Below, one piece after another: positions 1,185 to 61,290 of a stretch of 64,000 nt of DNA. The notes beneath the pieces are model-generated. The model was not told the DNA's origin. It worked only from the letters and a program-made list of their open reading frames with translations, and made no database searches. A program made the position numbers and the translations under genes. Numbering within the stretch: position 1 is the stretch's first letter; each line of letters opens with the position of its first letter. The stretch is from Candidatus Omnitrophota bacterium (GTDB lineage Bacteria; Omnitrophota; Omnitrophia; JAHJGZ01): the NCBI GenBank assembly GCA_018823795.1, contig JAHJGZ010000081.1, forward strand, positions 44,325 through 108,324, written 5' to 3'.

Positions 1185-1414
1185 ATGAAAATCGTTATTG
1201 GAATAATTATCGGTGGGGCGATCGGGTTTGCAGTCGGTTACTACGGCAAATGACGGCATTAGTTACTGCCGCGATAGCAAAGTAACTAATTTGCCGAAAT
1301 TTGTCCCTTAAGGCAAAGCCTTATAGGGTCAAATGCGTATCAGGTACGTGCCCGATGACGAGCAACCCGATTGTCAGTACTGCCATCGGCGCACTACAAG
1401 AGCTAATGTTTTAG
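1185..1414 (+). pseudogene. Small C-x4-C membrane peptide gene interrupted by an 83-bp hairpin-module insertion
   Basis: MKIVIGIIIGGAIGFAVGYYGK then TGA at 1251-1253. The ORF resumes at 1334 (CVSGTCPMTSNPIVSTAIGALQELMF, stop 1412-1414). It is colinear with the intact paralog at 4510..4668. Confidence 0.75.
1253..1335. mobile_element. 83-bp MITE-like insert made of two hairpin modules, bounded by a direct AAATG repeat
   Basis: AAATG occurs at 1248-1252 and 1331-1335. The insert contains CGGCATTAGTTACT...AGTAACTAATTTGCCG and a CCCTTAAGGC/GCCTTATAGGG hairpin. It is absent from the paralogous gene at 4510. Confidence 0.7.
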
Positions 1415-1540
1415 AAACAGTGTCCCGACTCGTAACCGAGGGCACAATTTTACAGCGATTGTGCCCTACTCGTCGGGATTAATTCGCGCAAATAATTTAT
1501 GTCGTGCAATACACTCCATAAATTATGCGCTCATTAAAGG
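1415..1540. repeat. Hairpin-module cluster (2 modules) ending in the TCATTAAAGG connector
   Basis: Contains the CCCGACTCGTAA..GGGCACAAT/ATTGTGCCC..CGTCGGG hairpin, a TTAATTC connector, and GCGCAAATAATTTATG/CATAAATTATGCGC. It ends with TCATTAAAGG 18 nt before ATG 1549. Confidence 0.75.
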
Positions 1541-1548: not shown

Positions 1549-1749
1549 ATGGCATGGACTGAAGAATCAAAGAAACAAATGGACGAAGCAGCGGTTCAAG
1601 CGAAGGCTGAGTTAGAGAAACATTTTGCTATATGGTCAGCAAAGGACCTTGCTGGCTGGTGGAAGCGGTGGTATCTCAAAGCCGGGCATAAGCGCCTCGG
1701 CCGACTACTTGTCGGTATGGCAAAGCCGGAAAAAGCAGAAGACAAATGA
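1549..1749 (+). CDS. Hypothetical 66-aa protein
   Basis: ORF preceded by AAAGGAATAAACA-ATG, the same RBS context as the gene at 1185. No recognisable family. Its stop TGA lies in an AAATGA connector. Confidence 0.4.
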   Translation: MAWTEESKKQMDEAAVQAKAELEKHFAIWSAKDLAGWWKRWYLKAGHKRLGRLLVGMAKPEKAEDK

Positions 1750-2190
1750 CGACATACTTTAGCGAGTGATAACGAAGCTAAAGTATAAGTCGGAATTAGT
1801 CCCCGCCGCTTTGCTTCGGTTTGAGAAGCAGGCGGGGATAAATGAGGAGATCCATAAAAAGTATTGCAATCGTTTCGAGACGACATACTTTAGCGAGTGA
1901 TAACGAAGCTAAAGTATAAGTCGGAATTAGTCCCCGCCGTTTTACTACGCTTGTCTGCTCAATAGGTACACAAGCGTAGTAGGCGGGGGCAAATGAAAGA
2001 ATTTTTTGACAGCTTTTCGAAACGGGATACGTGACAGCATACTTTACAGAACGAAGTGATGTAAAATATATGCTGAAACATATCCAGCTCCGCTGGACAA
2101 ATGAAGCGTAGCAGGCGGGGGAGAATGAAGAGAGGGAAAAAGTAGAGCCCCCAGAGACATACTACGTGATCAAGACACGTCATGTGTCCG
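1744..2190. repeat. Hairpin-module cluster (about 8 modules) with an internal 62-bp perfect direct repeat
   Basis: CGACATACTTTAGC..GCTAAAGTATAAGTCG, then GAATTAG, then CCCCGCC..GGCGGGG, then AAATGA. 1748-1809 is identical to 1879-1940. Half-modules follow. Confidence 0.8.
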
Positions 2191-2411: not shown

Positions 2412-3788
2412 ATGAAAAAGAAAATGCGCCGCTCATCCAAATACCTGTCAGTGAAACTCTTGATCGAGAGTTTTATGCTCCTTATTTTGATCGGTACGGT
2501 ACTGCTCCTTATGCCGTTTTCGACTGATAAAGCGGCCCTTTCTTTTATTGACAGCCTTTTTACCGCGACATCTGCGGTCTGTGTTACCGGCCTTACCGTG
2601 GTCAATACGGGAGACTTCACGTTTTGGGGGCAATTGATCATTTTAATGCTTATACAGCTTGGCGGATTAGGCATTATGGCCTTTGCAACGTTTTTTGTGA
2701 TTTTACTTTCAAAACGGATGTCGTTAAGTGAACGGTTGATTTTTAGGGATATTCTTCCCGAGTTGACGGTCAAAAGTGTCTTTGCGCTTCTCCGTCACAT
2801 ATTCCTTTTTACTCTTCTTGTCGAGTTTCTCGGTGTCCTCGTGCTTGTATTTTTTGTTTTTAATGATTTTACTCACCTCGGAAACGCGGTATGGTATGCC
2901 TGTTTCCACAGTATCTCAGCGTTTTGCAATGCCGGTTTTTCTTTATATCCGGACAGTTTTACCACGTTTCGGTCTCACTCGGCGCTCAATGGTACCATGA
3001 TAGGATTGATCGTCATCGGCGGCATTGGCTTTGTGGTGTATGAAGAAATATATCAGAAAATGAAAAAGCGCATCAAGCGTAAAGAACGGGTACGGCTGAG
3101 TGTTCATAGCAAAATAGTGATCCTGACGTCGGTATTGCTTATCCTCGGCGGTGCATGCTTGTTTTTCGCGCTGGAATACTATAATGCGTGTGAGAAAATG
3201 CCAATCGGTGAAAAAATTCTTACCGCCGTCTTTCAATCGGTGACGACCCGCACGGCGGGATTTAATACCGTAACGGTTGCTGACCTTTCGATTCCCACGA
3301 TCATGGTCATGATGATATGGATGTTTATCGGCGGTGCGCCTGCCTCATGTGCCGGCGGTATCAAGGTCACGACATTTGCGCTTATTGCGTGCCTTGTTGT
3401 AGCGGGATTAAAGGGGAAGGAACACGTTACTGTTTTTAAGCGACGAATTTCTAATGAAATCATAACAAAAGCACTCAGCCTTTTTTTTATCAGCGCATTG
3501 CTCGTCATGATGGCGGTGTACGGTGTTGCGCTCTTAGAAAAGGCGGGGGATTCCTTTCGTGATGTCAGGGGCTCATTCCTCGAGATCGTCTTTGAGTGCA
3601 TATCGGCTTTCGGGACGGTCGGCCTGTCAATGGGAATTACCGGAGCGCTGAGTTTTTTGAGCAAATGGATAATCGTTCTGCTCATGTTTGTCGGCCGGTT
3701 AGGGCCGTTGACCTTAGGAATATTAATTACGGCACAACGAAAAGAAGAGCCGTATGAATACCCAGAAGAAAATGTAATTATCGGATAG
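2412..3788 (+). CDS. trkH: TrkH/KtrB-family potassium uptake membrane subunit
   Basis: 458-aa polytopic protein with TrkH-like repeated pore segments (SAFCNAGFS, TAGFNTV, SAFGTVGLS). It is followed by trkA. Confidence 0.9.
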   Translation: MKKKMRRSSKYLSVKLLIESFMLLILIGTVLLLMPFSTDKAALSFIDSLFTATSAVCVTGLTVVNTGDFTFWGQLIILMLIQLGGLGIMAFATFFVILLSKRMSLSERLIFRDILPELTVKSVFALLRHIFLFTLLVEFLGVLVLVFFVFNDFTHLGNAVWYACFHSISAFCNAGFSLYPDSFTTFRSHSALNGTMIGLIVIGGIGFVVYEEIYQKMKKRIKRKERVRLSVHSKIVILTSVLLILGGACLFFALEYYNACEKMPIGEKILTAVFQSVTTRTAGFNTVTVADLSIPTIMVMMIWMFIGGAPASCAGGIKVTTFALIACLVVAGLKGKEHVTVFKRRISNEIITKALSLFFISALLVMMAVYGVALLEKAGDSFRDVRGSFLEIVFECISAFGTVGLSMGITGALSFLSKWIIVLLMFVGRLGPLTLGILITAQRKEEPYEYPEENVIIG

Positions 3789-3799
3789 GAGAAGACACT

Positions 3800-4462
3800 A
3801 TGAAACAAATTGCGATTATCGGGGCGGGTAATTTCGGAAAAAATTTAGCGCTTAATTTAGCGCGCGAGGGGGCTGAAGTGTTGGTCATCGATATTAATAA
3901 AGCGAAGATCGAAGCGATCAAAGACGAGGTCACGCGGGCTATTATTGCGGATGCGTCAAAAAAGGATGCTCTCAAGGCGATAGGTTTTGCTGATTTTGAT
4001 ATTGTGGTGGTGAGTTTGGGGGAGCGGATCGATGTCAGTGTCATGGCCATTTTATTCTTAAAAGAGCTTGGCATCAAAAAAATCATAGCAAAAGCAAATA
4101 ATGAGGATTATGCAAAAGCAATGAAACTGGTGGGGGCGGATGAGATTATTTTTCCGGAAAAAGACGTTGCCGACCGGTTAGCCCATTTTTTTCTGTATGG
4201 GGACATTGTCGATTATATAACGCTGTCGGAACAATACGGCATCATAGAAATAGCCGTTCCGGAAACATTGTATGGCAAAAGCATACAAGAACTGGACTTT
4301 CGCAAAAAATATTTACTCAACATCATAGCGGTGAAAAACCCCTTGAAAGACAAAATGAATATCGTCCCGCCATCCGATTATCGATTTCAGCCGGACGACA
4401 GCATTGTTGTTTTGGGGGAAGCGGACAATATTAATAAGCTTAAAAAGTTGATAAAAAAGTAA
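3800..4462 (+). CDS. trkA: TrkA/KtrA potassium uptake regulatory subunit (RCK_N plus RCK_C)
   Basis: IAIIGAGNFGKNLALNL Rossmann motif. 220 aa, adjacent to trkH. Confidence 0.9.
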   Translation: MKQIAIIGAGNFGKNLALNLAREGAEVLVIDINKAKIEAIKDEVTRAIIADASKKDALKAIGFADFDIVVVSLGERIDVSVMAILFLKELGIKKIIAKANNEDYAKAMKLVGADEIIFPEKDVADRLAHFFLYGDIVDYITLSEQYGIIEIAVPETLYGKSIQELDFRKKYLLNIIAVKNPLKDKMNIVPPSDYRFQPDDSIVVLGEADNINKLKKLIKK

Positions 4463-4509: not shown

Positions 4510-4668
4510 ATGAAGATCATTATCGGTATTATTATCGGCGCAGCGGTCGGATACGGGATCGGGTATTTTGGTAAATGCGCGTCGGGCACCTGCCCGCTGA
4601 CGAGCAACCCGATCGTGAGCACTGTCATCGGCGCCCTCATCGGCGCATTGGTGGCAAAGGGGGGGTAG
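4510..4668 (+). CDS. Small hydrophobic peptide with a C-x4-C motif (52 aa), intact paralog of 1185..1414
   Basis: MKIIIGIIIGAAVGYGIGYFGKCASGTCPLTSNPIVSTVIGALIGALVAKGG. Read from the sequence, as it is below the ORF-track size cutoff. Confidence 0.6.
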   Translation: MKIIIGIIIGAAVGYGIGYFGKCASGTCPLTSNPIVSTVIGALIGALVAKGG

Positions 4669-4785
4669 TATGGAAGAAAAAGAGAGGTTCGAGAATGAGG
4701 AAGAAAGTCCGTATCATCCGATGAATATTTCGCAAATGCAGGCGAACATGCTGCAGATACGTACGAAAGAAAAGGAGTAGGTGCC

Positions 4786-6015
4786 ATGGAACACTATCCC
4801 CGTGTGTATATAAAGAAGGGGAGAGATATCCCTCTTTTTGCAGGCCACCCATGGATTTTTTCAAAAGCGCTTCAGGAGGAATACCGTCTGCCGGCGGGAG
4901 AACTTGTAGCGGTTTATTCCGCTACCAATGAGCCGTTAGGGATTGGGATGTATAATCCCAAGACATCGATTCGTGTGCGCATGCTGGCGCGCGAGACGGC
5001 CGTTTGTATCGATCACGATTTTTTTATCCGCCGGTTCAGCTCTCTTGACGATGATAAACGGCCGCTCCTGCCGCCTGAAACTACCGGCTACCGCCTTGTG
5101 CACGGCGACGCTGATTATTTTCCCGGGCTCATCGTTGACCGGTACGGTGAGGTATGTGTATTTCAGATCCATACGGCAGGTATGGACCGTATGCGTAACG
5201 AAATTATTGAAGCGCTGCGTACTGCCTTCAGCCCGCGCGCAATCGTTGAACGGTCGGATATTGAGGCGCGGAAGCGGGAAGGGCTCGGCGTATTACCCGT
5301 GGCGGTCCACGAGGGGAGTATTGACGGAGTTGTGCCGTTTACCGAGAACGGCCTTCATTTTTTTGCTGACGTCGTGGACGGGCAGAAGACCGGTTTCTAT
5401 CTTGACCAGCGGAATGCGCGGATGCGCGTGGCAGGCCTTGTGCGGGGCAAAAGCGTGTTAAACCTTTTTAGTTATACCGGTGCTTTGAGTGTCTACGCGG
5501 CGCGCGGAGGGGCGGCGGAGATCGTTATGGTCGATAGTTCGAAAGAGGCGCTCTCACTCGCGCAGCGGCATTTTGAGGCCAATGGGTTTTCCTTTTCCGC
5601 GCGGTATCGATGTATGCACGGGAACGTTTTTGATATACTTCCCCGGCTTATAGAGGAGCAGAAAACATATGATTGTGTTGTCTGCGATCCGCCGGCATTC
5701 GCGAAATCACTGGAGAGTGTCGCGCGCGCGAAGACTGCCTATCTGAGCGCGAATCGGCAGTGCTGCATGCTCCTTCGTGAAGGGGGGATACTCGTGACCA
5801 GTTCCTGTTCAGGCCGTCTCACGCTAGATGATTTTTCCGGGATCATACGTGCCGCGGCGTTTCAGGCAGGCCGCGATCTCCACATTATTGATGTGCTCGG
5901 CCATCCGTATGACCATACCGACCGGCTCTCCTTCGCCGAAGGAAGGTATCTTAAGACCCTCATTGCACGAGCGGTCGGCGGGAATGTATCCTCTCGCCGC
6001 TTTGCTTCGGTTTGA
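4786..6015 (+). CDS. Class I SAM-dependent rRNA methyltransferase, RlmI-like (PUA plus MTase)
   Basis: GFYLDQRNARMRV and VVCDPPAFAKS motifs, 409 aa. The last roughly 10 codons and the stop lie inside a CCGCC/GGCGGGG hairpin module. Confidence 0.8.
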   Translation: MEHYPRVYIKKGRDIPLFAGHPWIFSKALQEEYRLPAGELVAVYSATNEPLGIGMYNPKTSIRVRMLARETAVCIDHDFFIRRFSSLDDDKRPLLPPETTGYRLVHGDADYFPGLIVDRYGEVCVFQIHTAGMDRMRNEIIEALRTAFSPRAIVERSDIEARKREGLGVLPVAVHEGSIDGVVPFTENGLHFFADVVDGQKTGFYLDQRNARMRVAGLVRGKSVLNLFSYTGALSVYAARGGAAEIVMVDSSKEALSLAQRHFEANGFSFSARYRCMHGNVFDILPRLIEEQKTYDCVVCDPPAFAKSLESVARAKTAYLSANRQCCMLLREGGILVTSSCSGRLTLDDFSGIIRAAAFQAGRDLHIIDVLGHPYDHTDRLSFAEGRYLKTLIARAVGGNVSSRRFASV

Positions 6016-6151
6016 GTAGCAGGCGGGGATCAATGATGCTGAACATATACTTTGCCAGCTGGCCGGCAAAGTATTAATTCCCTGCCTACCGGCAGGCAGG
6101 CGGCAAATTAGTTATCTTGCTGCCGCGGCGGTAACTAATGCCGTCATTGAA
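5982..6151. repeat. Hairpin-module cluster (4 modules) spanning the rlmI-like 3-prime end to the next RBS
   Basis: Module order: CTCGCCGC..GGCGGGG, ATCAATGA, GAACATA, TACTTTGCCAGC/GCCGGCAAAGTA, TTAATTC, CCTGCCTACCGGCAGGCAGG, CGGCAAATTAGTTA/TAACTAATGCCG, TCATTGAA. Confidence 0.8.
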
Positions 6152-14314: not shown

Positions 14315-14441
14315 TTCTTCTAGGGACACAATGCCTAATTGAGATACGTACTGTGGTCCCGGAATTCATACAGAAAGTTACTATGGAGTGGTTATAAAAA
14401 TTCCAACCTCGTACTCTGAAATCGTATATACTACTATAATC

Positions 14442-15764
14442 ATGCCTAAACGTAAAAAAAAACACATTTCAAAAATAAGTCTCGCAACCAGTACGGACAT
14501 CCCCGCCGATTTTGATTTCAATGAAGAATTTAAAGCCGCTTTTTCTTTGATGGAAAATACCAATGAGCATATCTTTATTACCGGAAAAGCCGGGACCGGC
14601 AAGTCGACCTTGCTGCAGTATTTCAAGCTCCATACAGAAAAAAAGATAGTGGTCTTAGCGCCGACGGGGGTTGCAGCGATCAAGGTCCACGGCCAAACGA
14701 TACATTCATTTTTTCATCTGCCGCCCCGTTTTATAAAAAAAGAACATGTAAAGCGATTACGGAAAAGTGAGTTGTTGAAACGTATTAATGCAATTGTCAT
14801 AGACGAGGTTTCTATGGTCCGCGCCGATCTTTTAGACGGTATCGATTATTCCCTTCGGGTGAATAGGGGAAGGCCTGATGAGCCTTTTGGCGGCGTGCAG
14901 ATGATCCTGTTTGGTGATCTCTTTCAACTGGCACCGGTCGTAAATAGAGATAGCAAAGACATACTCGCCTCATCATATGACAGCCCGTATTTTTTTAGTG
15001 CTGCGGTGATGGAAAAAATAGATCTTCGCCATCATGAACTGCATAAAATATACCGCCAAAAAGAGGAAACGTTCATTAATCTGCTCAATAAGGTACGCGT
15101 CAAAAATTGTGATGATGATGATTTGGATGCGCTCAAGCAAAGGGTCTGTTCAGACCTTGAGCATGGCTCCGGCGGTGTCATTACGCTTACGACGACCAAT
15201 AGTGATGCCTATACCATTAACACCGATTGTTTAAAAAGGATCGGTGCCGATGAGTTTCGCTATACGGCTACGATAACGGGAACGTTCGATAAAGGGGCCT
15301 ATCCGACCGAAGAGTGTTTGATCCTCAAAAAGAATGCACAGGTGATGTTAATAAAAAATGATCCTCAGAGACGATGGGTGAACGGAACGCTTGGTGAAAT
15401 TGAAGCCTTGAATGAATATTCTATTATGGTAAAAATAAAAGATACGACCTATGAAGTAGAGAAAGTACAATGGGAGAAGATCGCCTATATATTTAATCAT
15501 CATAAACAAAAAGTGGAGGAAAAAGTTGTCGGCTCATTTGAACAATATCCTTTAAAGTTGGCATGGGCGATAACTATCCATAAAAGCCAGGGACAAACGT
15601 TTGATAATGTTATCATTGATATGGGGTACGGAGCGTTTACCCATGGGCAGACCTATGTGGCATTAAGCCGGTGCACCAGTTTTAAAGGGGTTCGATTAAA
15701 GAAGCCGGTCATTTTTAGTGATATTATTTTTGACAACCGTATTTATGAATACTGCAATAAATGA
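14442..15764 (+). CDS. pif1: Pif1/RecD-like SF1B DNA helicase
   Basis: FITGKAGTGKST (Walker A), IVIDEVSMV, FGDLFQLAPV, ITIHKSQGQTFD, YVALSRC. The ORF opens at 14388 and ATG 14442 was chosen. The stop TGA lies in an AAATGA connector. Confidence 0.85.
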   Translation: MPKRKKKHISKISLATSTDIPADFDFNEEFKAAFSLMENTNEHIFITGKAGTGKSTLLQYFKLHTEKKIVVLAPTGVAAIKVHGQTIHSFFHLPPRFIKKEHVKRLRKSELLKRINAIVIDEVSMVRADLLDGIDYSLRVNRGRPDEPFGGVQMILFGDLFQLAPVVNRDSKDILASSYDSPYFFSAAVMEKIDLRHHELHKIYRQKEETFINLLNKVRVKNCDDDDLDALKQRVCSDLEHGSGGVITLTTTNSDAYTINTDCLKRIGADEFRYTATITGTFDKGAYPTEECLILKKNAQVMLIKNDPQRRWVNGTLGEIEALNEYSIMVKIKDTTYEVEKVQWEKIAYIFNHHKQKVEEKVVGSFEQYPLKLAWAITIHKSQGQTFDNVIIDMGYGAFTHGQTYVALSRCTSFKGVRLKKPVIFSDIIFDNRIYEYCNK

Positions 15765-15937
15765 GGCCATACTTTATGGAGTCCTATAGGACGACATAAA
15801 GTATAGGGCCGAATTTATCCTCGCCGCTTTGCTACGCTTGTCTGTCTAAGACGCACACAAGCGTAGCTGGCGGGGATAAATGAAAAGACTTTTGCCGCCG
15901 CTTTGCTTCGGTTTGAGAAGCTGGCGGGGGCAAATGA
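15758..15937. repeat. Hairpin-module cluster (3 modules)
   Basis: Module order: AAATGA, GGCCATACTTTATGG..CATAAAGTATAGGGCC, GAATTTA, two CGCCGC..GGCGGGG hairpins, CAAATGA. Confidence 0.8.
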
Positions 15938-15962
15938 AATGAGAAAATAGGAACAATCGAGG

Positions 15963-16220
15963 ATGAAGAAGACGCCTTCCATGCCCGCCCGCAATGATAC
16001 TAAGGCTAAAAAAAATAAAGACCCGTTGCATGGAGTTACGCTCGAGTGTATGGTGAAGCGTTTACAAGAATTGTATGGCTGGGAGGAGTTAGGGCGAAGA
16101 ATAAAAATAAACTGTTTTAATCATGATCCCAGTATACAGTCGAGCCTCACATTCTTACGAAGGACTCCGTGGGCCCGGAAAAAAGTAGAAAGGTTGTATG
16201 TAAATGAAGACACAACTTAG
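15963..16220 (+). CDS. VF530/DUF2132-family small DNA-binding-fold protein
   Basis: [61 protein letters not shown]. The last 5 codons are read from a hairpin module. Confidence 0.7.
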
Positions 16221-16607
16221 CGAACGAAGTGAAGCTAAGTTGTGTGTCTGAATTTACCCAGCACCCAGCAGAACAAATATGTATTATGTTTATGTTTTAA
16301 AAAATATTAAAGATAAAAATCTTTATTATTGATATACGCGTGATTTAAGTCGTCGTCATAAAGAACATAATACGAATAAAAAAAGTGGGAGTTGGTTTAT
16401 TGCGAAGCGCATAAATTAGAAATCGACGCTCGGAAGAGAGAAAAAAGATTAAAACAATATGGCCAAGCACGCAGTGGTCTTAAATCACACATTAAGGAAT
16501 CGCTGAGATAGTACAACTGGGTGCTGGGTTAATTCCTGCCTGCCGGCAGGCACACAGTAACTTATGTCGTTCATCCTGAACTTCCATAAGTTACGTGTTC
16601 ATTAAAG
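16201..16607. repeat. Hairpin-module cluster in which one module carries a GIY-YIG pseudogene as its loop
   Basis: Module order: AAATGA, GACACAACTTAGC/GCTAAGTTGTGTGTC, GAATTTA, CCCAGCACCCAG (16257-16268), the ORF, CTGGGTGCTGGG (16517-16528), TTAATTC, CCTGCCTGCCGGCAGG, ACAGTAACTTATG/CATAAGTTACGTGT, TCATTAAAG. Confidence 0.8.
16279..16511 (+). pseudogene. Degraded GIY-YIG (URI-domain, COG2827-like) nuclease gene
   Basis: MYYVYVLKNIKDKNLYY, then TGA at 16330, then YTRDLSRRHKEHNTNKKSGSW. After a 1-nt frame change near 16395 it reads VYCEAHKLEIDARKREKRLKQYGQARSGLKSHIKESLR and ends at 16511. Confidence 0.75.
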
Positions 16608-16618
16608 AGAGTATTCTT

Positions 16619-17575
16619 ATGCGGGTAATCGTTAGAAATAGTTTATTTGCTGTAATCATATTGATACTTTTTTTCTTCGGCCTGGAAGTAATAAGTAGAT
16701 TGCTACCTTTCGATTATAGGGAAGTTCATAACGGTTATACGTTAAATGATCCGTATTTGTTTTGGAAACCACATTATTTTAATGATTTGCTGAATGAAGA
16801 AAGTAAACAAGCAAACGAATACAGGATTGTAGCGTTAGGAGATTCCTGCACAGCTGGTGAAGGATGTGACGGAGAAACCTATGTTTACCTTTTAAAGAAG
16901 TTGTTACAGGAGCATATGCCGAGAAAGAATTTTAAAACGTACAACTTAGGAGTTGTCGGGTATTCGAGTTTTCAAGCACTACGGACACATAAGAGATATG
17001 GCACCTATTTGAAACCGAATGTAATCATCATATATGTAGCCTGGAATGATATATGGAGAAGTTATATAAGTGATAAACAATTGAGTAAACATTTATCGAG
17101 GTTTCATATTCTCAATAAACTGCATATTATTAAACTGATGAGGAAATGCCTGACAAAAGTTAAGCCGTATCCGAACTTTCCACTTGTTCATCGTGTCACA
17201 CGGGAAGAGATGCGAAAGAACATATTAGAAATGATTCAGATAGCGCACAATCAAAATGCACATACGATAATTATTGTTCCGCCGTTTTTATATGATCAAG
17301 AAGGAAATAAACCGTATAAAGATGACATAAAACCTTATTTAGACACTATTCGTTCTATTCGTACAGATAATAACGTAACTCTACTTGACCTGCAGGGATA
17401 CTTTGCTAACAAGACGGATATGTTTGCTATTAACCACGAAGAAGATTATATCTACAGCACAAAAGATGGGGTAGATACGATTCATCCAAGTGCAAAAGGG
17501 CATCGATGTATAGCGAATGAATTATACAAGGTCGTTTGTAGTATATTGCCGCCTGCTGGCAGGCAGGCGAAGTGA
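16619..17575 (+). CDS. SGNH/GDSL-family hydrolase with an N-terminal membrane anchor
   Basis: VALGDSCTAGEG (block I) and DTIHPSAKGH (block V). ATG 16619 was chosen because upstream codons belong to a repeat. The C-terminal PPAGRQAK and stop lie in a CCTGC..GGCAGG module. Confidence 0.75.
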   Translation: MRVIVRNSLFAVIILILFFFGLEVISRLLPFDYREVHNGYTLNDPYLFWKPHYFNDLLNEESKQANEYRIVALGDSCTAGEGCDGETYVYLLKKLLQEHMPRKNFKTYNLGVVGYSSFQALRTHKRYGTYLKPNVIIIYVAWNDIWRSYISDKQLSKHLSRFHILNKLHIIKLMRKCLTKVKPYPNFPLVHRVTREEMRKNILEMIQIAHNQNAHTIIIVPPFLYDQEGNKPYKDDIKPYLDTIRSIRTDNNVTLLDLQGYFANKTDMFAINHEEDYIYSTKDGVDTIHPSAKGHRCIANELYKVVCSILPPAGRQAK

Positions 17576-17776
17576 TGTAAAGCATAAGTATGAACATATA
17601 TTTTTCCAGCTAGCTGGCAGAGAAGTCAGAGTGGACAAAATTAATATTCGTTTCATTTACCCCGTCTCGAAAGCGGCGGCAAAGCCCTTTCAGGGATTTG
17701 CCGCCCTCGACGGGATTAATTCGCGCAAATGACTTACGTCGTCTGACGACTTCCGTAAGTCATGCGCTCATTAAAG
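17549..17776. repeat. Hairpin-module cluster (4-5 modules, some degraded)
   Basis: Module order: CCGCCTGCTGGCAGGCAGGCG, AAGTGA, a degraded TACTTT..CAGC palindrome, TCATTTA, CCCCGTCTCG..CGACGGG (17660-17714), ATTAATTC, GCGCAAATGACTTACG/CGTAAGTCATGCGC, TCATTAAAG. Confidence 0.8.
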
Positions 17777-17787
17777 TGATCTAACAT

Positions 17788-18156
17788 ATGAGTCCATGTC
17801 GAAAATGTACCGCAGAATGCTGTCGCTATATTGCTCAGCAAATTGATGCACCACGGAGTAAGGAAGCGTTCGAACATATACGGTGGTTTCTTGCGCATAA
17901 ACACGTTTCTGTGTATATCGAGAAACGAAAATGGTACTTAGAGTTTAAAACTGATTGTAAGTATATGGGGCCGGATCACACCTGTACGATTTATGCGAAA
18001 CGTCCCCAGATATGCCGTGAGCATAAGATCAGTGAATGCGAATACCACCCGGGGGCTTTTGACCATGAGGTCGTGTTTACCACACTCGAATCATTTGATA
18101 CATACCTTAAAAAACGTTTTCCCTCAAAGAAGAAAAAACGTATTAGACGTACCTAG
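17788..18156 (+). CDS. YkgJ-family (UPF0153) cysteine-cluster protein
   Basis: N-terminal CRKCTAECC motif plus downstream Cys residues, 122 aa. Confidence 0.7.
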   Translation: MSPCRKCTAECCRYIAQQIDAPRSKEAFEHIRWFLAHKHVSVYIEKRKWYLEFKTDCKYMGPDHTCTIYAKRPQICREHKISECEYHPGAFDHEVVFTTLESFDTYLKKRFPSKKKKRIRRT

Positions 18157-18226
18157 AAAATCTGCTATAATCTTCTTACCAAGGGAACTAAAGTTTACGT
18201 TTTTCAGTCTAATCATAATGTGATAT

Positions 18227-18344
18227 AAATGACGACATGAATTACGGAATATAATGACGTAATTCATCTGTCGGAATTTATCCCATCTCGAGTTGCAAAT
18301 CCTTGAAAAGGTTTTGCAACCGCTTTACGAGATGGGATACATGA
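18227..18344. repeat. Hairpin-module cluster (2 modules), an inverted counterpart of 17653-17776
   Basis: Module order: AAATGA, CGACATGAATTACG/CGTAATTCATCTGTCG, GAATTTA, TCCCATCTCG..CGAGATGGGA (18281-18337), TACATGA. Confidence 0.8.
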
Positions 18345-18371
18345 ATTAAAAAAACCACTCCACAAAGGATT

Positions 18372-21300
18372 GTGACCACTATGTGGGAAAAGATAATAAC
18401 CTATTTTGCCCGGCGGCATCTTTTGATCAATTTTATGTTTGTCGCTGTCTTTATCGGTGGTGTTTTTGCCTGGCAGCATACGAATAAAGAGGAGATGCCG
18501 GATATTACTTTTGATCGCGTCCGCATCACTGTGCGCTATCCGGGGGCGCCGGCAGAAGACGTCGAATATTTTGTCACCAAGCCGATCGAAGAAGAGCTTC
18601 GCGGCATTGACGGGGTGTACCGGGTGACGAGCACCTCAAGCGTTGGTTCGTCGAATATTTCGGTCGAGCTTGAGCCGAATTACCCGAATAAAGACGAGGC
18701 GATCACTGAAATCCGCAATGGGGTATTGGACGTAGACCTGCCGGATGATGTCATTGATGATCCATCGGTGCGGGTTTTTAAAACCTCAAAGAAAGCGATC
18801 ATTGATATCGCGCTGATGTACAAAGACGTGCATCTTCTCGATGTCGAATCACGCCGCATTTTACAAAAATATGCTTTCTCCCTAGAAAACCAGCTCCTGA
18901 ATCTTTCCGAAGTAAACAGCATTAACAAAACAGGGTACCTGCAGGAAGAGATCCAGATCAAAGTCTATCCGGAGAAATTGCGCGAATTTAATATTCCGTT
19001 TAATACCGTTATGCAGGAGACAAAAGCGAACCATCTGCGCCAGCCTGCCGGCACAATTGAAAGCCCGCAGGAACCGAAAGTGACCCTCCTTTCCGAACTC
19101 AATACGACCGAGAAATTAAGTAACCTGGTCATTCAGGGGGGCTTTGAAGGACGGCTCATCCGCCTGGGTGAGGTTGCTGATATCAGGAGCGCGTATGAAA
19201 AAAACAATGAAGTCATGAAGATAAACGGCCACGAAGGGATAATACTCAACGTGGTCAAGAGCAGTTCATACGGCATCCTTGATGCAATCGATGTGGTCGA
19301 GCGGGTCGTTGAGGAATTTAAGAAAAATAATCTTGAAGGCACATCGATAGACCTTCAGCTTCTTGATGATGAATCGCTCGATGTCAGGAACCGTCTTTCC
19401 ATTGTCGGTATGAATGCCGCGATCGGGTTCAGTTTGATCATTCTTATTTTATTTACATTCCTTACCGTACAGTCAGGATTGTGGGTGGCTATGGGGATCC
19501 CGTTTACTTTCTGTTTTACCATGATCTGCGCATCCTTCATGGGCTATACCATCAACAATACCACCTTAGCGGCGGTCATCATTGTGATGGGGATGATCGT
19601 CGACGATGCGATCGTGGTTGCTGAAAACATCACCCGCTTTTCCCAGCAGGGGATGGGGCGTGAGGAGGCGGTGGTGAAAGGGACCACCTATGTGCTGCTT
19701 CCTATTATTGCGAGTATTGTCACCACCTGCGTGGCGTTTATCCCGCTTTTTTTCTTTAGCGGTCATTTCGGAAAGTTTGTCCAGTTTATTCCGCCGATCA
19801 TATTCCTTATGCTCGGTGCAAGCCTTCTTGAATCGATCTTAATTTTGCCGGGGCATATGAATTTTAAACTCCCTTTTGGGAATGAGACCTCGTCACGGCG
19901 GACACACTGGTTTCAGAAAATCGAAGACGGATATGGCTGGCTGCTCGAGCGGCTCCTGCCGGGTAAATGGATTATTTTTATTTTTTTTCTGGGGTTACTT
20001 GTTTTTTCCGGCTCTATTGCACATACCACCATGAAGTTTGTCATGTTTCCGCGCGAAGAGACGCAAAACGTTTCGATTACCGGAATTGTCCACGATGATG
20101 CAAAACGCTACGATACGGCGCGGCTCACCACACAGGTCGAAGACGTGCTCACGCCGTATATCGGCAAAGAGGTTATCGGGTTCCGTACCGACATCGCGCG
20201 CAGCCGCCGCGGCGGTGCGGTCGAAGAAAACCGGTTCCACATACAAGTCGAGATCGTGCCGAAGGAAAAGCGAAAGAAAAGTGCCGATGCTTTGATCAAA
20301 GAATGGAATGCCGCATTTGAGGGTTTGAACGGATTTAATAAACTGACGATTCAAAAAAGCCATTGGGGACAGGAATCCGGTACCCCGATCGAGATCCTTG
20401 TTCAGGAGAATAAGGATCCGGTACGTGCGGCACTCGTTGCTGAACTTGCCGCTGCCATGAAGGATCATGCAGCCCTCACGAATGTGGAAATCGAAGAAGG
20501 GTTGCGGGTGCCTGAATATAAGGTGGATATCGATCATGATAAAATAAAACGCCTCTCTATTAATCCGGCCGACATTGCTTCGACCTTTCGCGCTGCGCTT
20601 GAAGGGACCGTGCTCTATGACTTTTCGAACGGGTATGAAGACATTGATGTGCGGTTTACGATTATTGATGAGGCAAAAGGTGACATTAATAAAGTACTCA
20701 GCCTGCCGGTTGAAAATAAAGGGGATTATTTAGTGCCGCTCGGAGATATTGTACGGGTGAGCGAGGTGGTTTCCCCGAATGCTATCGAGCGGCAGGACCT
20801 GAAACGTACCACTATGCTCGATGCCGCTATTAAAAAGGGGGCAGGAAAAACGCCGCTTGAAATTGCCGCGGATTTTGAAACGCGTATTTTCCCCCGTCTT
20901 GTTTCCCGTTTTCCGACCGCGGTCATGTCCTTTGCCGGGGAAGTGAAAGATACGCGGGAGTCGAAGAGCGATCTTACGAACGCGATCACTTTGGCGGTCT
21001 TCCTTATCTATATTATTTTAGCGGTGCTTTTTAATTCGCTCGTCAAGCCGCTCATTATTATGCTCGCCATTCCCTTCGGAGTGGTGGGGATTATAATCGC
21101 CTTCTGGCTGCACGGTAAAACCCTTTTTGGATTTTATGCCGCGATCGGTGCGCTTGGGCTTGCCGGTGTGGTGGTGAACGATTCGATCATCATGCTCGTG
21201 AAATTGGAAAAAGAATATGACCGCGCGCACGACGCACACGACGCAAATCATCAAATCGCACAGATTGCAAAAACGCGGCTTCGTGCTATAATACTCACGA

Positions 21301-24966: not shown

Positions 24967-25495
24967 TACACCAAAAATTTTTAAAGAAGTAAACGGGCTC
25001 TATAAAATAATTCCGCTCATACCATTTCGAAAGACCGTCGGCGTTTCGTTTGATATCGTACCGAAAAATATTCTTTCTCATGTAGACGGCCTTGACCGGG
25101 TTATTCACCGTGGCGGGGCCCTTTCACCGGGGTCGTTGGGAGCAGTTAAAAGACCGTGGTATATGCACCCGCATCAGGAAGATCATTTGCTGGTCTTAGT
25201 CGGTATCCGGTATACCGATCTGTATACCCCGACACATGGCAGGATCGAGCGGTTTGAAGTTTCGGCCGATTGCATTAAGAAGAATGGTAAGGTTGTTTTC
25301 AAAGGGGCGGCGATTTTGTCATGGCCGCCTCATGTGTTTCACCGGATTCGAAGCAGTAAAAAATACGGTTCTGCATCACTCAACATTGCCCGGCGCTCAA
25401 AAGGGTTTGATATTAAAACAAACTTTAGTATTTATGACGTGAATACTAAAAATAAGACCTATCACGTCATCCGGGCGGGATATCTAGATCAGTGA
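24941..25495 (+). CDS. Hypothetical protein, possibly cupin-fold
   Basis: [16 protein letters not shown] resembles a cupin core. The start is uncertain because the ORF opens at 24851 inside msrAB. The stop TGA lies in a CAGTGA connector. Confidence 0.4.
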
Positions 25496-25591
25496 CGACA
25501 TATTTTAGCGAGTGATAACAAAGCTAAAATATAAGTCGGAACTTATCCTCGCCGCTTTGCTTCGGTTTGAGAAGCAGGCGGGGATCAGTGA
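25489..25591. repeat. Hairpin-module cluster (2 modules)
   Basis: Module order: CAGTGA, CGACATATTTTAGC/GCTAAAATATAAGTCG, GAACTTA, CTCGCCGC..GGCGGGG, ATCAGTGA. Confidence 0.8.
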
Positions 25592-25927: not shown

Positions 25928-26287
25928 TTAATTCGTGTCAGTTGTCCCGACTCGTAAACGAGGGCACAATTTTACAGCGATTATGCCCTACTCGTCGGGA
26001 TACGTGAAGACATATTTTACAGAACGAAATGATGTAAAATATAAGTCTGAACATATACTTTGCCAGATATCTGGCAAAGTGTTAATTCGTTTCATTGCCC
26101 CCGCCAGCTACGCTTGTGTGCCTATTGGACAGGCAAGCGTAGCAAAGCGGCGGGGATTAATTCCCTGCCTACCGGCAGGCAGGCGGCAAATTAGTTACCT
26201 TGTTGGCACGGCGGTAACTAATGCTGTCATTGAAGGCGGGGATCAATGAAAATATTTTGCAACAGTTTTTCGAGACGGAAAACATGA
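25928..26287. repeat. Hairpin-module cluster (about 8 modules plus half-modules)
   Basis: Contains ATTAATTC, the CCCGACTCG../..CGTCGGG hairpin, the GATACGTGA-hairpin-GAACATA-TACTTTGCCAG palindrome-TTAATTC composite (25999-26088), an inverted CCCCGCC module, CCTGCCTACCGGCAGG, CGGCAAATTAGTTA/TAACTAATGCTG, and TCATTGAA. Confidence 0.8.
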
Positions 26288-27470: not shown

Positions 27471-27536
27471 GGGCCATGACTTACGGAGCGGAGCGAACGT
27501 AAGTCATATGGCCAAGTTTATCCAGCTCCGCTGGGT
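27471..27536. repeat. Hairpin-module cluster (2 modules)
   Basis: GGGCCATGACTTACG/CGTAAGTCATATGGCC, then AAGTTTA, then TCCAGCTCCGCTGGG. Confidence 0.7.
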
Positions 27537-27554
27537 AAATTCTTCCATGTTTCT

Positions 27555-28740: not shown

Positions 28741-28830
28741 AAAAAGGATAAAGGATAAATGAAAAAAGATGAAGTAATTGCTTTTGACCATACGAGAAGC
28801 CGTTACTTTGTATTTTTATCTTTTATCTTT
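28741..28830. repeat. Second repeat family: AAGGATAAAGGATAAA / TTTATCTTTTATCTTT arms around a GCTTTTGACC core (copy 1)
   Basis: Purine-rich and pyrimidine-rich arms pair if G-T wobble is allowed. The second copy lies at 36031-36120. Confidence 0.6.
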
Positions 28831-31217: not shown

Positions 31218-32096
31218 ATGAAAAAGAAAAAGCTAAAATTTGGATTGCCGAAGGGAAGCCTGGAAGAGGCAACGTACCGGCTTTTTAAAAAGGCAGGGTT
31301 TGAAATAACCGTGCGTTCACGTTCCTATTATCCAACGGTCAATGATGATGAGCTGGAGTTCGTTCTCTTTCGTCCGCAGGAGATGCCGCGTTACGTTGAA
31401 GACGGAGTTGTTGATGCGGCCCTTACCGGTTACGACTGGATCGTTGAGAATGGTTCACAGGTCGAGGAGGTGTGTGACTTGACCTATTCAAAAGCAACAC
31501 GCCAGAAAGTCAAATGGGTATTGGCCGTAAAAAACGATTCCCGGTTTAAAACAGTAAAAGATTTACAGGGAAAAAAGATTGCAACCGAACTCGTAAATGT
31601 AACAAAAAAATATCTTGAGAAAAAGGGTGTCAAAGCAGAGGTCGAATTTTCCTGGGGGGCGACTGAGGTGAAGCCGCCGCTCATGGCCGATGCAATCGTT
31701 GATGTTACTGAAACCGGATCGAGTTTGCGGGCGAATAATCTGCGGGTGATCGACACCATTTTAGAGTCATCGACCAAGTTGATCGCAAACCAAAAAAGTA
31801 TGAAGGATGCGTGGAAGCGAGAAAAGATCGAAAATATTGCGCTTCTGCTCAATGGTGCGATCCAGGCGGAAGATAAAGTCGGTTTGAAAATGAATGTGCT
31901 CAAAACAGATCTCAAAAAGATTCTTGCAGTTCTTCCGGCCCTGCAGAAGCCAACCGTATCACAATTGAGTGACCACACGTGGCTTGACGTTGACACGATC
32001 ATTGATGAAGCAGTCGTGCGGAAAATTATTCCTGAGCTCAAAAAAGCCGGCGCATCCGGAATAATCGAATATCCGTTGAATAAAGTTATCTATTAA
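31218..32096 (+). CDS. hisG: ATP phosphoribosyltransferase, long form
   Basis: [24 protein letters not shown]-terminus, 292 aa with a C-terminal regulatory domain. Confidence 0.9.
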
Positions 32097-32397
32097 TGAG
32101 GCCATATTTTATGGAGTCCTTTGGGACGACATAAAATATTTGGCCGAATTAACCCTCGCCGCTTTGTTTCGCTTTACGAAGCAAAGCGAAACAGGCGGGG
32201 GCTAATGAAACAAACTTGAAAACATAGTCGAATTAATACTTTGCCAGCCAGCTGGCAAAGTATAAGTTCAGCCAACAAACTTACGTCACGATATTCCGTA
32301 AGTTTGGGCTTCACGTACCCTCGCCGCTTTGTTTCGCTTTACGAAGCAAAGCGAAACAGGCGGGGGCTAATGAAACAAACTTGAAATATTAACATAC
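32094..32397. repeat. Hairpin-module cluster (5 modules) with a 69-bp perfect direct repeat
   Basis: TAATGA, then GGCCATATTTTATGG..CATAAAATATTTGGCC, then GAATTAA. 32153-32221 is identical to 32318-32386. An inverted copy of the TTAATTC..GAACATA..GATACGTGA composite lies at 32230-32319. Confidence 0.8.
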
Positions 32398-32421: not shown

Positions 32422-32517
32422 ATGCCATGCGGACGAAAACGTAAAAAGAAGAAGATGAACAAGCACAAACGGAAAAAAAAGTTACGACTCAATAGACACA
32501 AAAAGAAACTTAGATAA
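32422..32517 (+). CDS. Very basic 31-aa peptide, bS22/AURKAIP1-like
   Basis: Hand-translated as MPCGRKRKKKKMNKHKRKKKLRLNRHKKKLR. The KMNKHKRKK..R..RHKK pattern is typical of this small ribosome-associated family. GAGG lies 8 nt upstream. Confidence 0.5.
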   Translation: MPCGRKRKKKKMNKHKRKKKLRLNRHKKKLR

Positions 32518-32646
32518 GCATTGTACTAAAAACACATTCCAATGTGGACTCGTAACCGCACCGAGTCATGCGTGTCGGTGTAAACAGAGCCATCCGGTAG
32601 GGGGGGGGTATGAACTACCCCTACTACACATATCATTATTTATTGA

Positions 32647-36030: not shown

Positions 36031-36120
36031 CAAGGAAAAAGGAAAAAGGAAAAAATAGTCGCTTTTGACCCAAAGCATACACTTTCCCCTTTTTACTTTA
36101 TCTTTTATCCTTTATCCTTT
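36031..36120. repeat. Second repeat family, copy 2 (AAGGAAAAAGG.. / ..CTTTATCCTTTATCCTTT arms around GCTTTTGACC)
   Basis: Shares the GCTTTTGACC core and the TTTATC(C/T)TT arm with 28741-28830. Confidence 0.55.
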
Positions 36121-43138: not shown

Positions 43139-43831
43139 ATGGCAACAATAGATTTACAGGCAAAAGTGCGGTCGATTATCGGAGGCCGTCATCCCAAACG
43201 ATTACGAAAGAAAGAAATTATCCCTGCTATTGTGTATGGACGCGGGACAACGGCAACGTCTATTCAAGTGGCACGCGGTGAACTAGAACACGCGTTGCAT
43301 ACGAGCGCCGGTGAGAATATTCTCATACAGTTGAAGTTTGCCGACGATGCGAGTAAAGACACGACGGTTATTATTAAAGACGTACAACACTCGATAATTA
43401 CTGATCAGATTGACCACGTCGATTTCAGCGTTATTTCCTTAACAGAAAAAGTGCGTGTTCGTGTACACATACACACAAAAGGGGAAGCTGAAGGGACGAA
43501 GGAGGGCGGTATTCTTGATGTCGTCCGCCGGGAAGTTGAGGTTGAATGTCTTCCCACAAAAATTCCGGACCGTATTGATGTTTCTGTCGAAGCCCTTAAA
43601 ATTAATGACAGTATTCATGTGAAGGAATTGGTTTTCCCTGAAGGGGTGGAATGTTTAGAAGACCCTGAGGCGACGGTGATCGTTGTTCTGACGCCGAAAA
43701 CTGAGGTTGAAGCAGTTCCTACAGAAGGTGAAGCTGTTGAAGGTGCTGAAGGGACGGTTCAGGAACCTGAAGTTATTAAAAAGGGTAAAGCAGAACCCGA
43801 GGGTGAAGCAGCAGCAGCAGCAGCAGAATAA
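43139..43831 (+). CDS. rplY: 50S ribosomal protein bL25 (Ctc form)
   Basis: RKKEIIPAIVYG N-terminus and an acidic C-terminal extension. Followed by pth. Confidence 0.9.
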   Translation: MATIDLQAKVRSIIGGRHPKRLRKKEIIPAIVYGRGTTATSIQVARGELEHALHTSAGENILIQLKFADDASKDTTVIIKDVQHSIITDQIDHVDFSVISLTEKVRVRVHIHTKGEAEGTKEGGILDVVRREVEVECLPTKIPDRIDVSVEALKINDSIHVKELVFPEGVECLEDPEATVIVVLTPKTEVEAVPTEGEAVEGAEGTVQEPEVIKKGKAEPEGEAAAAAAE

Positions 43832-45412: not shown

Positions 45413-45482
45413 TGAATAGCGACAGCGTTTTGCAATAAAAAGTAGCATTTAAAATGAGTAATAACATACGTAAGGAGAGAGA

Positions 45483-59871: not shown

Positions 59872-59991
59872 GGCTGAATTTATCCCCACACCAATTGTGT
59901 GAGGGATATTTACGCAGAATTTGAAATAATTGGTGTGGGGATTTAATTCGCACATATGGTTTATGTCGTAAAAGGCACGTGCAGCATGTGC
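59831..59991. repeat. Hairpin-module cluster (3-4 modules)
   Basis: Module order: CCTGCCTGCCGGTAGGTAGG, CGAAGTGA, GAATTTA, TCCCCACACCAATTG/CAATTGGTGTGGGGA (59883-59941), TTTAATTC, GCACAT..ATGTGC. Confidence 0.75.
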
Positions 59992-61234: not shown

Positions 61235-61290
61235 ATGAAGCTGTGATTTATGTCGCTCTGTAAGCTCCATAAATCATGCGCTTATTAATC
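61231..61290. repeat. Single hairpin module spanning a stop codon to the ruvC RBS
   Basis: Module order: TAAATGA, AGCTGTGATTTATG/CATAAATCATGCGC, TTATTAATC. GTG 61302 lies 20 nt after the start of the last connector. Confidence 0.7.

Follow-up and report, generated by a model that had tools for sequence, protein, structure and literature searches.

Hairpin-built repeat elements fill the interval from stop codon to ribosome-binding site at gene junctions of an Omnitrophota contig

Why should repeat elements begin at the stop codon of one gene and end just before the ribosome-binding site (RBS) of the next? The question is raised by a 64,000-nucleotide (nt) stretch of contig JAHJGZ010000081.1 from a Candidatus Omnitrophota bacterium (assembly GCA_018823795.1, positions 44,325 to 108,324; the whole 64-kb stretch is called the window here), which holds 17 clusters built from recurring hairpin families that are joined by a few connector sequences. 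A reading made from the letters of the window, without database searches (the sequence-only reading), had posed two possibilities: the elements either target the stop/RBS neighborhood or have expanded into every nucleotide that selection leaves free. That alternative was soundly framed, and evidence was found on both sides, with duplication of CAAATG around one element speaking for targeting and boundaries flush with non-coding features speaking for filling. Our answer, which we hold to be probable, is that the clusters are selfish DNA with a preference for A-rich AARTG(A)-type insertion sites, and that selection would have confined the surviving copies to the gap between stop codon and RBS.

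The plan of the elements was read from a sample of public metagenome contigs, scanned with the 5′ arm of the hairpin called K (outer connector left out), which gave 51 loci; sequences fetched for comparison are cited by L numbers. A complete unit consists of (T)AA-RTGA, hairpin h1, GAAYTTA, a GC-rich hairpin h2, TTAATTC, hairpin h1′ (K) and TCAT-TAA. This three-hairpin layout was found in almost all of the 51 loci, with the upstream stop on the left and a Shine-Dalgarno (SD) sequence or ATG on the right. The outer hairpins h1 and K are copies of one another in inverted orientation, as, less perfectly, are the end heptamers TAARTGA and TCATTAA. The Y hairpin next to hisG matches the K search pattern on the opposite strand, and the "first" hairpins (Y, D, S and J) and the "last" hairpin (K) are one superfamily in two orientations. 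Clusters are arrays of one or several units, often truncated, laid end to end, and their connectors are unit ends and inner linkers.

Two- or one-hairpin derivatives make up most of the copies, and the full-length form carries in its h2 loop a small GIY-YIG gene of ~90-120 amino acids (aa) that encodes the catalytic domain only. An intact open reading frame (ORF) of this kind lies in the h2 loop of L023 (Pfam PF01541, E = 3.4e-16), and a GIY-YIG pseudogene occupies the matching place in the window element at 16200-16607 (PF01541, E = 2.4e-05 on read-through). These were the only ORFs inside elements in the window and the fetched loci, where neither a RAYT gene within the elements nor a parental transposase gene beside them was found. 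We lean towards viewing the family as selfish, hairpin-built mobile DNA in which the GIY-YIG protein would presumably have a part. In L023 (~3680-4100) the upstream TAA is followed directly by the ATG of the left heptamer, and the frame stays open through h1 into the GIY-YIG ORF; this could reflect chance, or the nuclease could be translationally coupled to the host gene. A start of the GIY-YIG ORF at the left-heptamer ATG was considered and dropped, since an ATG of their own is present in other copies and, in the window copy, an in-frame TGA intervenes.

Within the window, Pfam upheld the identities of the flanking genes: PIF1, VF530/DUF2132, GDSL/SGNH hydrolase, CxxCxxCC (ykgJ-like), HisG, BamA, DHPS (folP), RlmI-like methyltransferase and DUF1375 (yceK-like). 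A self-BLAST repeat map bore out the cluster positions proposed from the letters, and the seven cluster starts that it gave at 1249, 1746, 15758, 17568, 25493, 32093 and 50037 all lie at stop codons. The eight stop codons that had been listed as supplied or abutted by the first connector are all where they were said to be:

1251-1253, plus strand: TGA within the junction motif, a premature stop in a small gene
1747-1749, plus strand: TGA within the junction motif, ending a 66-aa ORF
15762-15764, plus strand: TGA within the junction motif, stop of pif1
17573-17575, plus strand: TGA of the GDSL/SGNH hydrolase gene, in an AAGTGA in an h1 loop
25493-25495, plus strand: TGA within the junction motif, closing a frame open from 24967
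32094-32096, plus strand: TAA of hisG, overlapped by TAATGA
50037-50039, plus strand: TAA of bamA, overlapped by TAAATGA
61232-61234, plus strand: TAA of a 105-aa gene, overlapped by TAAATGA

One of them was misassigned in kind: the AAGTGA at 17570 is not a first connector and belongs to the loop of an h1-type hairpin with a nested CCTGCC..GGCAGG palindrome.

At the other end of the clusters stands TCATTAAAG, present five times in the window against ~1 expected by chance (both strands). Its plus-strand copies at 1531, 16599, 17768 and 50413 have a start codon 18-20 nt downstream in four of four cases, and the variants at 61282 and 6144 lie 20 and 16 nt from a start. All six distances given in the sequence-only reading were thus correct, and one more 20-nt case was added on the minus strand (K hairpin 27476-27507, CTATTAAAT at 27471, ATG at 27451). 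In total, stop-to-RBS filling was seen at eight co-directional junctions: small-gene remnant/1549, rlmI/yceK, pif1/DUF2132, DUF2132/SGNH, SGNH/ykgJ, 27555/27451 (minus strand), bamA/skp and 105-aa gene/ruvC. Five further clusters are flush on the stop side only (1749, 6507, 25495, hisG and folP), and the cluster at 18227-18344 is flush with neither stop nor start.

Three successive junctions, from pif1 to the ykgJ-like gene, display the composition of such fillings:

15758-15764, plus strand: junction heptamer TAAATGA, whose TGA (15762-15764) is the pif1 stop; the heptamer recurs at 15877-15883, on the right side of the first two-hairpin unit
15765-15937, plus strand: pif1/DUF2132 array, with h1 (Y, 15765-15810; RNA fold -26.5 kcal/mol, z = -6.1), GAATTTAT, GC-rich h2 (15819-15876) and TAAATGA, followed up to 15937 by an h1 remnant, a second h2 and AAATGA (15932-15937); repeat families D4, D8, D9 and D17; the DUF2132 start lies 26 nt beyond the array
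16200-16607, plus strand: degenerate full-length element making up the whole DUF2132/SGNH spacer, with GTAAATGA, h1, GAATTTAC, the arms CCCAGCACCCAG/CTGGGTGCTGGG with the GIY-YIG pseudogene (~16279-16510) between them, TTAATTC, a nested palindrome, K (16553-16598) and TCATTAAAG (16599-16607)
17548-17776, plus strand: SGNH/ykgJ cluster, beginning inside the SGNH 3′ end and ending 11 nt before the ykgJ-like start; on the left a nested palindrome (17548-17568), the h1 loop AAGTGA with the stop (17573-17575), the h1 3′ arm and a P-like hairpin, on the right TCATTTA (17653-17659), h2, TTAATTC, K and TCATTAAAG (17768-17776); repeat families D2, D10, D13, D15 and D19

The CCTGCCTGCCGGCAGGCAGG palindrome at 17548-17568 recurs at 59831-59850, 6081-6100, 16536-16552 and 26164-26183, and also in L013 and L022. 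It acts as a separate small insert, often nested in h1 loops (those of folP, SGNH, L013 and L022) or placed right after TTAATTC.

The placement on the start side holds in the metagenome sample. Among 42 non-redundant assessable K copies, 28 are followed, on their own strand, by a gene start at 5-31 nt when counted by script (31 by inspection), as against 6.4% of random positions in the same loci (binomial p = 8e-24); an ORF of at least 60 aa was required, and the null demanded an in-frame stop within 100 nt upstream. The distances fall into two groups. At 15-25 nt, a GGAG-type SD follows directly after TCATTAA(A). At 7-10 nt, the start codon comes directly after the element with no SD, as in TCATTAAATG; about a quarter of the K copies precede genes that lack an SD, and the genes concerned include some with unmistakable N-termini (DnaJ, MAAKRDYYEVLGV; GlmS, MCGIIGYIG; HisF, MLSKRIIPCLDIKD; RuvC, MRILGVDPALT). 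The remaining K copies face the stop or terminator of a convergent gene, a promoter-like TTGACA..TATAAT, a tandem element (TCATTAAGTGA) or nothing recognizable. The near-constant ~20 nt noted in the window is thus not an intrinsic constant of the element, since the distance splits into two modes across relatives; in the window, the terminal 7-nt end, an abutting native SD and normal SD-AUG spacing add up to 20 nt.

The bamA-skp junction indicates where that SD comes from. It had been proposed that the only SD of skp is part of the connector. In three syntenic relatives (Skp 42-59% identical), which contain no modules in ~40 kb, the spacer reads TAG-TTACTATTATGAACTTAAAAGGAGAAAAACA-ATG (L061) or TAA-ATAACTTTTATCAATGTGAAAGGAGAAAATCAT-ATG (L063), and AAAGGAGA stands at -15..-8 of skp in these element-free relatives as it does in the window (TCATTAAAGGAGAGCGTACC-ATG). 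The bamA-skp gap measures 393 nt in the window versus 31-33 nt in the element-free relatives, while other junctions differ little in length between the two. Unoccupied junctions of the window carry AAAGGAG or AAAGAG at the AAAGGAGA position. Because AAAGGAGA lies at an equal distance from the ATG in element-free relatives, the skp SD, including the AAG that it shares with the connector, did not come from the connector; it is evidently ancestral, and the element ends just before it.

Similar comparisons were possible for the stop side at three junctions. BamA ends in ..FEFNLSRGF* in the window and in all element-free syntenic relatives, with the Omp85 Pfam model covered through the last residue of the window protein; HisG ends in ..NKVI(Y/D)* at identical length in the element-free relative L067; and the 105-aa protein has identical length in L061, where the spacer to ruvC is 33 nt. 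Because the orthologues end at the identical residue, the TAA codons of bamA, hisG and the 105-aa gene are evidently native stops, abutted by the element at 0 nt in three of three testable cases. An element supplies the stop only after landing inside the last codons of a gene, as in FolP, RlmI and DUF2132. The proposal that the elements contribute stops needs revision accordingly.

Among ~42 metagenome elements, there are at least 17 whose left end contains or touches the upstream stop (by inspection, not scripted), and a stop within 7 nt before a random position was found in 1.2% of cases. The stop lies inside the heptamer in L012, L017, L019, L023, L034, L036, L041 and L031, and read-through tails of 2-12 aa occur in L013, L015, L029, L048 and L055. 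The heptamer occurs in all three frames relative to the upstream ORF, at ~10:6:8 by manual tally, and the left end halts translation at its TAA, at its TGA or a few codons into h1.

Evidence on the insertion event itself comes from one empty site. The small gene with the premature stop at 1251 has an intact paralog at 4519-4666, called DUF6132 by Pfam, and the filled site CAAATG-[unit]-CAAATG, which holds an 83-nt two-hairpin unit, corresponds to the empty site GGTAAATGCGC in that paralog. Other two-hairpin units have matching flanks as well, namely TAAATGA at 15758/15877, TAATGA at 32094/32200, TCAGTGA at 25489/25585 and (C/T)AAATGA at 1743/1839, and the 6-7-nt flanks match variant for variant in five such units. 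The flanks have the look of an AARTG(A) target word duplicated over 5-7 bp; on that view the left copy would be native, together with the stop within it. In L041, AAGTGA is present on both sides; the upstream gene, which we take to be nusB, has its in-frame TGA in the left copy, and the next gene has its GTG in the right copy. The simplest ancestor for L041 is a pre-existing GTGA stop/start overlap. A 3-bp duplication there would fuse both genes in frame, and at least 6 nt (AAGTGA) are required. For three-hairpin elements, a 3-bp TAA duplication was likewise set aside as unproven, as the right TAA persists even where the left triplet reads CAA or GAA. In the window, the ssb stop at 45410-45416 is followed by TGA (TTTAATGAATAG), a TAATGA word that has no element and is an unoccupied candidate site.

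Landings inside the last codons leave readable traces, and the C-terminal tails that had been attributed to module DNA at five genes fared unequally. FolP is 281 aa long and ends in ..DFLKMVDLLQSPDKNIV in the relative L061, versus 296 aa and ..DFLTMRKTIN-EAKSCGTCLPVGRRSDRNF in the window; the two sequences part at the heptamer ATAAATGA (59806), beyond which h1 and the nested palindrome are translated. Element origin of this tail was borne out, but its length of 12 aa was not: ~19 aa after the heptamer at 59806-59813 are evidently element-coded, with the native end lost. For the RlmI-like protein, an alignment of 13 homologues showed ends 0-9 aa past ..YLKTxILEV and the window tail in none of them; NVSSRRFASV is encoded by GAATGTAT and the 5′ arm of a GC hairpin, with the stop (6013-6015) in the loop, and this tail, judged against the homologues, is element-coded too. 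The closest named homologues of this protein are from 'Candidatus Omnitrophica' metagenome-assembled genomes (MAGs). The DUF2132 tail is module-derived by its sequence: the match to the Pfam model runs out at residue 80 of 85, translation passes through the heptamer as AAT GAA, and a TAG in h1 ends it at ..YVNEDTT*. Similar tails in the metagenome loci are ..MVNEDKT* in L013 (upstream gene presumably porD), ..MINES* in L015, ..PEKT* in L029 (presumably rpsS), ..SENISYGAQSAT in L048 and ..NEGRTYGAKRT in L055. The last 8-9 codons of the SGNH gene traverse the nested palindrome and the h1 loop, and its tail, as had been proposed, is likewise module-derived by sequence; a homologue search returned the SGNH query itself only, and gave no comparison sequence. 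The yceK-like tail is ambiguous. Its last six codons appear again 236 nt downstream, immediately behind a TCATTTA connector, which fits module origin, but a homologue at 83% identity also ends in ..ASCEFRPA.

What the sequences show is the architecture of the elements, their placement statistics, the native stops and a native SD at three orthologous junctions, the element-coded tails and the one empty site; the course of events that follows is inferred. Elements would integrate at short A-rich AARTG(A)-like sites with duplication of the site, and in compact genomes such sites would be concentrated at TAA/TGA stops, at TAAATG and GTGA overlaps and at the TAA(A) 5′ of an SD. Purifying selection would retain only copies between the last sense codon and the SD/AUG; with a pre-insertion gap of only ~0-35 nt, a surviving element would necessarily span the distance from stop to RBS. 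Its left end offers TAA and TGA in two frames and a TAA/TAG in h1 for the third, so that insertion into last codons costs only a tail of 4-19 aa; its right end stops short of the SD/AUG; and, as the hairpins are followed by no U-tract, operon transcription should continue. Deletional trimming, added to selection, would spare no copies but those caught between essential signals. In favor of the targeting component are the empty site, the agreement of flank variants and the exact coincidence with native stops in three of three testable cases.

A bolder version, possible but tentative in our estimate, makes the element a specialist for operon punctuation. It would recognize TAAATG, ATGA/GTGA overlaps or a TAA at the 5′ edge of an extended SD, duplicate that word and pry the cistrons apart without polar damage; the left copy of the word would remain the upstream stop, and the right copy would become the downstream start or the sequence before the SD. 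If true, target and termini would mimic translational signals, the element could act as a general un-coupler of translationally coupled genes and would embody a new insertion-site logic, and in the SD-less class (TCATTAAATG) the element end might serve as an initiation leader.

Several observations weigh against our favored reading. In L068 (~5860-5975, ~3.5 kb beyond the window), h2, TAAATTC, K and TCATTTA lie flush (0 nt) with the 5′ end of a tRNA gene, and other elements adjoin promoter-like and terminator-like sites; targeting of translational punctuation leaves these cases unexplained. At bamA-skp and 105aa-ruvC, ~17-22 nt of the relatives' spacer are missing, a loss that would not be expected from simple insertion. 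Proof of a duplicated target exists for one site only, and in three-hairpin elements the flanks do not co-vary: the right TAA is near-invariant even where the left triplet is CAA or GAA, and resembles the terminus of an element more than a duplicated target. The WAARTGA heptamer is not enriched window-wide (57 found versus 64 expected). Finally, density is patchy. Flanking sequence was available as 27 kb of JBDRLM010000049.1 (111 kb, assembly GCA_043813055.1; L069 1-7720 and L068 2350-21740), which is 99.93% identical to the window, and holds ~3 hairpins versus the 17 clusters in the window; the window is not representative of the genome. Logan contigs of run SRR2544004 match the window at 100% identity.

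Much of this would be expected if there were no targeting at all, only packing and survivorship: near-random insertion into transcribed spacers, followed by a deletion bias that strips slack DNA and dispensable elements and leaves copies flush between essential signals, where few deletions would be survivable. Such a process would produce contacts at tRNA, promoter-like and terminator-like sites too, would erode native spacer beside the elements, and would account for the many truncated or partial modules and for the roughly even spread of heptamer frames. We nevertheless consider it unlikely. It does not account for the specific CAAATG duplication of the empty-site pair, for flank repeats matched variant for variant in five units, or for junctions that fall exactly on the native stop and not merely near it; and since element-free relatives keep 30-nt spacers, compaction alone is not that strong.

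Still less probable, in our view, is that the hairpins are domesticated intercistronic RNA modules, kept by the host as stabilizers, processing sites or translation modulators, with a 3′ hairpin protecting the upstream cistron and a 5′ hairpin outside the ribosome footprint insulating the downstream RBS. The predicted folds are stable (-22 to -26 kcal/mol), start 0-4 nt past the stop and end ~20 nt before the AUG, leaving the RBS unpaired, and SD-less genes preceded by K copies include dnaJ, glmS, hisF and ruvC. Diverged copies also occupy the same junction in different species, in L013/L015 (porD-porA, by our own reading of the genes), L038/L058 (LysM protein/hisF) and L034/L050/L051 (dehydrogenase/small gene), which means either long retention or repeated insertion at the same site. 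Domestication is hard to square, however, with close syntenic relatives that lack elements at the same junctions, with the gene disrupted at 1251 and the arbitrary tails, with a nuclease gene and pseudogenes carried inside elements, and with the patchy density along the contig.

The modules had also been put forward as probable terminators. Terminator-like sites coinciding with modules were not found in 15500-18500; K hairpins are followed by UCAUUAAAG and no U-tract, and several clusters lie inside conserved operons such as bamA-skp-lpxC, so a terminator role is unlikely. Of the three functions that had been ascribed to the elements, two, the SD and the terminators, are not upheld. Liang and Deutscher are said to have found, in 2015, that repetitive extragenic palindromes (REPs) of E. 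coli within ~15 nt of a stop stall terminating ribosomes; by analogy, stop-proximal hairpins may do so here.

That ORF calls simply end wherever AT-rich repeats happen to offer stops is refuted for practical purposes: some flanking ORFs are indeed small and lack a Pfam match (1549-1749, the frame ending at 25495 and 60917-61234), but the pattern appears at the Pfam-confirmed PIF1, HisG, BamA, DHPS, GDSL, VF530 and RlmI genes, termini are confirmed by orthologues, and the independent metagenome sample gives p about 1e-23.

How do these elements compare with known ones? REP/BIME and REPIN-RAYT systems of E. coli, Pseudomonas and Stenotrophomonas are abundant extragenic palindromes in mosaics with linker motifs (PMC2817692, PMC3733652). 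They share with the window family a location in co-transcribed spacers and after gene ends, and are thought to be mobilized by a single-copy, repeat-flanked enzyme gene; abundant, imperfect extragenic palindromes of 20-40 nt in mosaic arrangement are found in the window as well. A REP palindrome, however, has a GTAG or CGTC tetranucleotide at one end (PMC3733652). No such tag was found at the module ends, where the flanks are RTGA/TCAT and the GAATTTAT/TTAATTC connectors; the associated ORF encodes ~90-120 aa of GIY-YIG and not a Y1 (HUH) transposase; and the window family combines two or three hairpins, the outer ones inverted, and is packed between stop and SD far more tightly than described for BIMEs.

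In Coxiella burnetii, the palindromic copies of QMITE1 and QMITE2, which are MITE-like (MITE, miniature inverted-repeat transposable element), reach 1-50 bp into the 3′ ends of functional genes and can provide C-terminal residues and stops, as in the EnhC extension of the Dugway strain (PMC5896051). The organism differs, and presumably the sequence family does too; QMITEs have unique direct repeats and no nuclease gene, and neither stop-to-RBS filling nor a constant relation to starts has been reported for them. The Correia elements of Neisseria (CREE/NEMIS) and pneumococcal RUP/BOX have terminal inverted repeats and short A/T-rich targets near genes, and are co-transcribed, form mRNA hairpins and often contain stops in all frames (PMC2229807). 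They use TA targets and a DDE-type parental insertion sequence (IS), and Correia ends have promoter boxes and an IHF site; for the window family, whose ends imitate a stop or the sequence before an RBS, no parental IS was seen. Rickettsia RPE and enterobacterial RU/ERIC are palindromic repeats found in coding sequence, where they add peptide segments (PMC2759123). RPEs lie in frame within genes, whereas the window family, which terminates every frame, contributes short C-terminal tails only.

Against the general description of a MITE, the window family has terminal inverted repeats in h1 and K, and for a target duplication of fixed length it offers one CAAATG pair and five units with matching flanks, the flanks of three-hairpin copies not co-varying; unlike a classical MITE, its full-length copies carry an ORF for a GIY-YIG catalytic domain only, and no transposase was seen with elements in the window or the fetched loci. 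That domain is shared with free-standing GIY-YIG homing genes, but NUMOD/IENR1-type C-terminal modules are lacking, and copies lie at dozens of unrelated junctions, whereas classical homing genes go to the cognate allele of a single conserved gene. Intrinsic terminators differ in having a U-tract after the hairpin. Full-text literature searches returned no description of this element.

Repeats that overlap gene ends are already known from REP, QMITE, ERIC and RPE. What sets the window family apart is the nucleotide-exact placement, with a stop at one end and an SD/AUG at the other, the recurrence of the same hairpin in 51 metagenome loci (probably from Omnitrophota and relatives) and the link to a GIY-YIG nuclease instead of a known transposase. 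For annotation, this means that C-terminal tails of up to ~19 aa can be repeat-coded (FolP, RlmI, DUF2132 and GDSL hydrolase), that intergenic lengths are inflated ~ten-fold at some operon junctions, and that a TCATTAA end can anchor start-codon calls beside K hairpins. It also raises the questions of how selfish DNA persists in streamlined genomes and whether termination, mRNA decay or translational coupling is affected by strong hairpins 0-4 nt past stops and ~20 nt before starts.

Two further searches concern the distribution of the repeats. A scan for the P-hairpin pattern in a MAG contig collection without the window's genome gave five matches in unrelated MAGs, all attributable to chance. 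Public sequencing-run contigs aligned to 14400-18400 showed multi-copy depth over the modules, and no clean empty-site joints were found among them over that interval; none of the runs was an RNA run.

The clusters at other positions of the window are made of the same parts:

1245-1341, plus strand: 83-nt two-hairpin unit in the small DUF6132-type gene, with duplicated CAAATG flanks and the premature TGA at 1251
1421-1539, plus strand: V hairpin, TTAATTC, K and TCATTAAAG (1531-1539), 18 nt before the start at 1549
1741-2129, plus strand: cluster opening with CAAATGA, two D-GC two-hairpin units and further modules; families D3 and D17
5982-6151, plus strand: cluster filling the rlmI-like/yceK-like spacer and ending in TCATTGAA, 16 nt before the ATG at 6160
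25487-25591, plus strand: D-GC two-hairpin unit with TCAGTGA on both sides, the left copy containing the stop 25493-25495
27471-27545, minus strand: cluster between two minus-strand genes, with GAATTTAC, a small hairpin, K, CTATTAAAT and the ATG at 27451
32094-32386, plus strand: cluster abutting hisG, with TAATGA, h1 (Y), h2, TAATGA and further modules including a 165-nt tandem duplication
50037-50421, plus strand: cluster filling the bamA/skp spacer, from TAAATGA (its TAA the bamA stop) to TCATTAAAG (50413-50421)
59806-59970, plus strand: element beginning inside folP, with ATAAATGA (59806-59813), h1 (59814-59875), the nested palindrome (59831-59850), GAATTTAT, a W hairpin, TTAATTC and a degenerate K; within the 3′ arm of h1 is the FolP stop (59869-59871)
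61232-61290, plus strand: single h1/K hairpin between the 105-aa gene and ruvC, from TAAATGA to TTATTAATC, 20 nt before the ruvC GTG

Some features of the neighborhood lie outside these clusters. An 88-nt direct repeat (2191-2278 and 4738-4825, 94% identical) takes in the RBS of the rlmI-like gene together with its first codons; the copy at 2239, which lies downstream of a repeat cluster, resembles a truncated duplicate of the 5′ end of that gene. A second, unrelated inverted-repeat element with AAGGA(T)AAA-type arms and a GCTTTTGACC core is present at 28747-28827 and 36032-36120, and expands the tktC-ispE spacer to 113 nt versus 8 nt in a relative. After hisG, at ~32423-32518, there is a tiny, extremely basic ORF (MPCGRKRKKKKMNKHKRKKKLRLNRHKKKLR*) that is conserved in the element-free L067 (~1590-1680). 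The dnaB gene is split into 46290-47294 and 47349-47639 by a TAA at 47292, where assembly GCA_043813055.1 has GAA; a second substitution relative to that assembly lies at 47383, and the L25 gene differs by 9 nt in the length of an AGC repeat at 43807-43815. These differences are probably strain or assembly variants.

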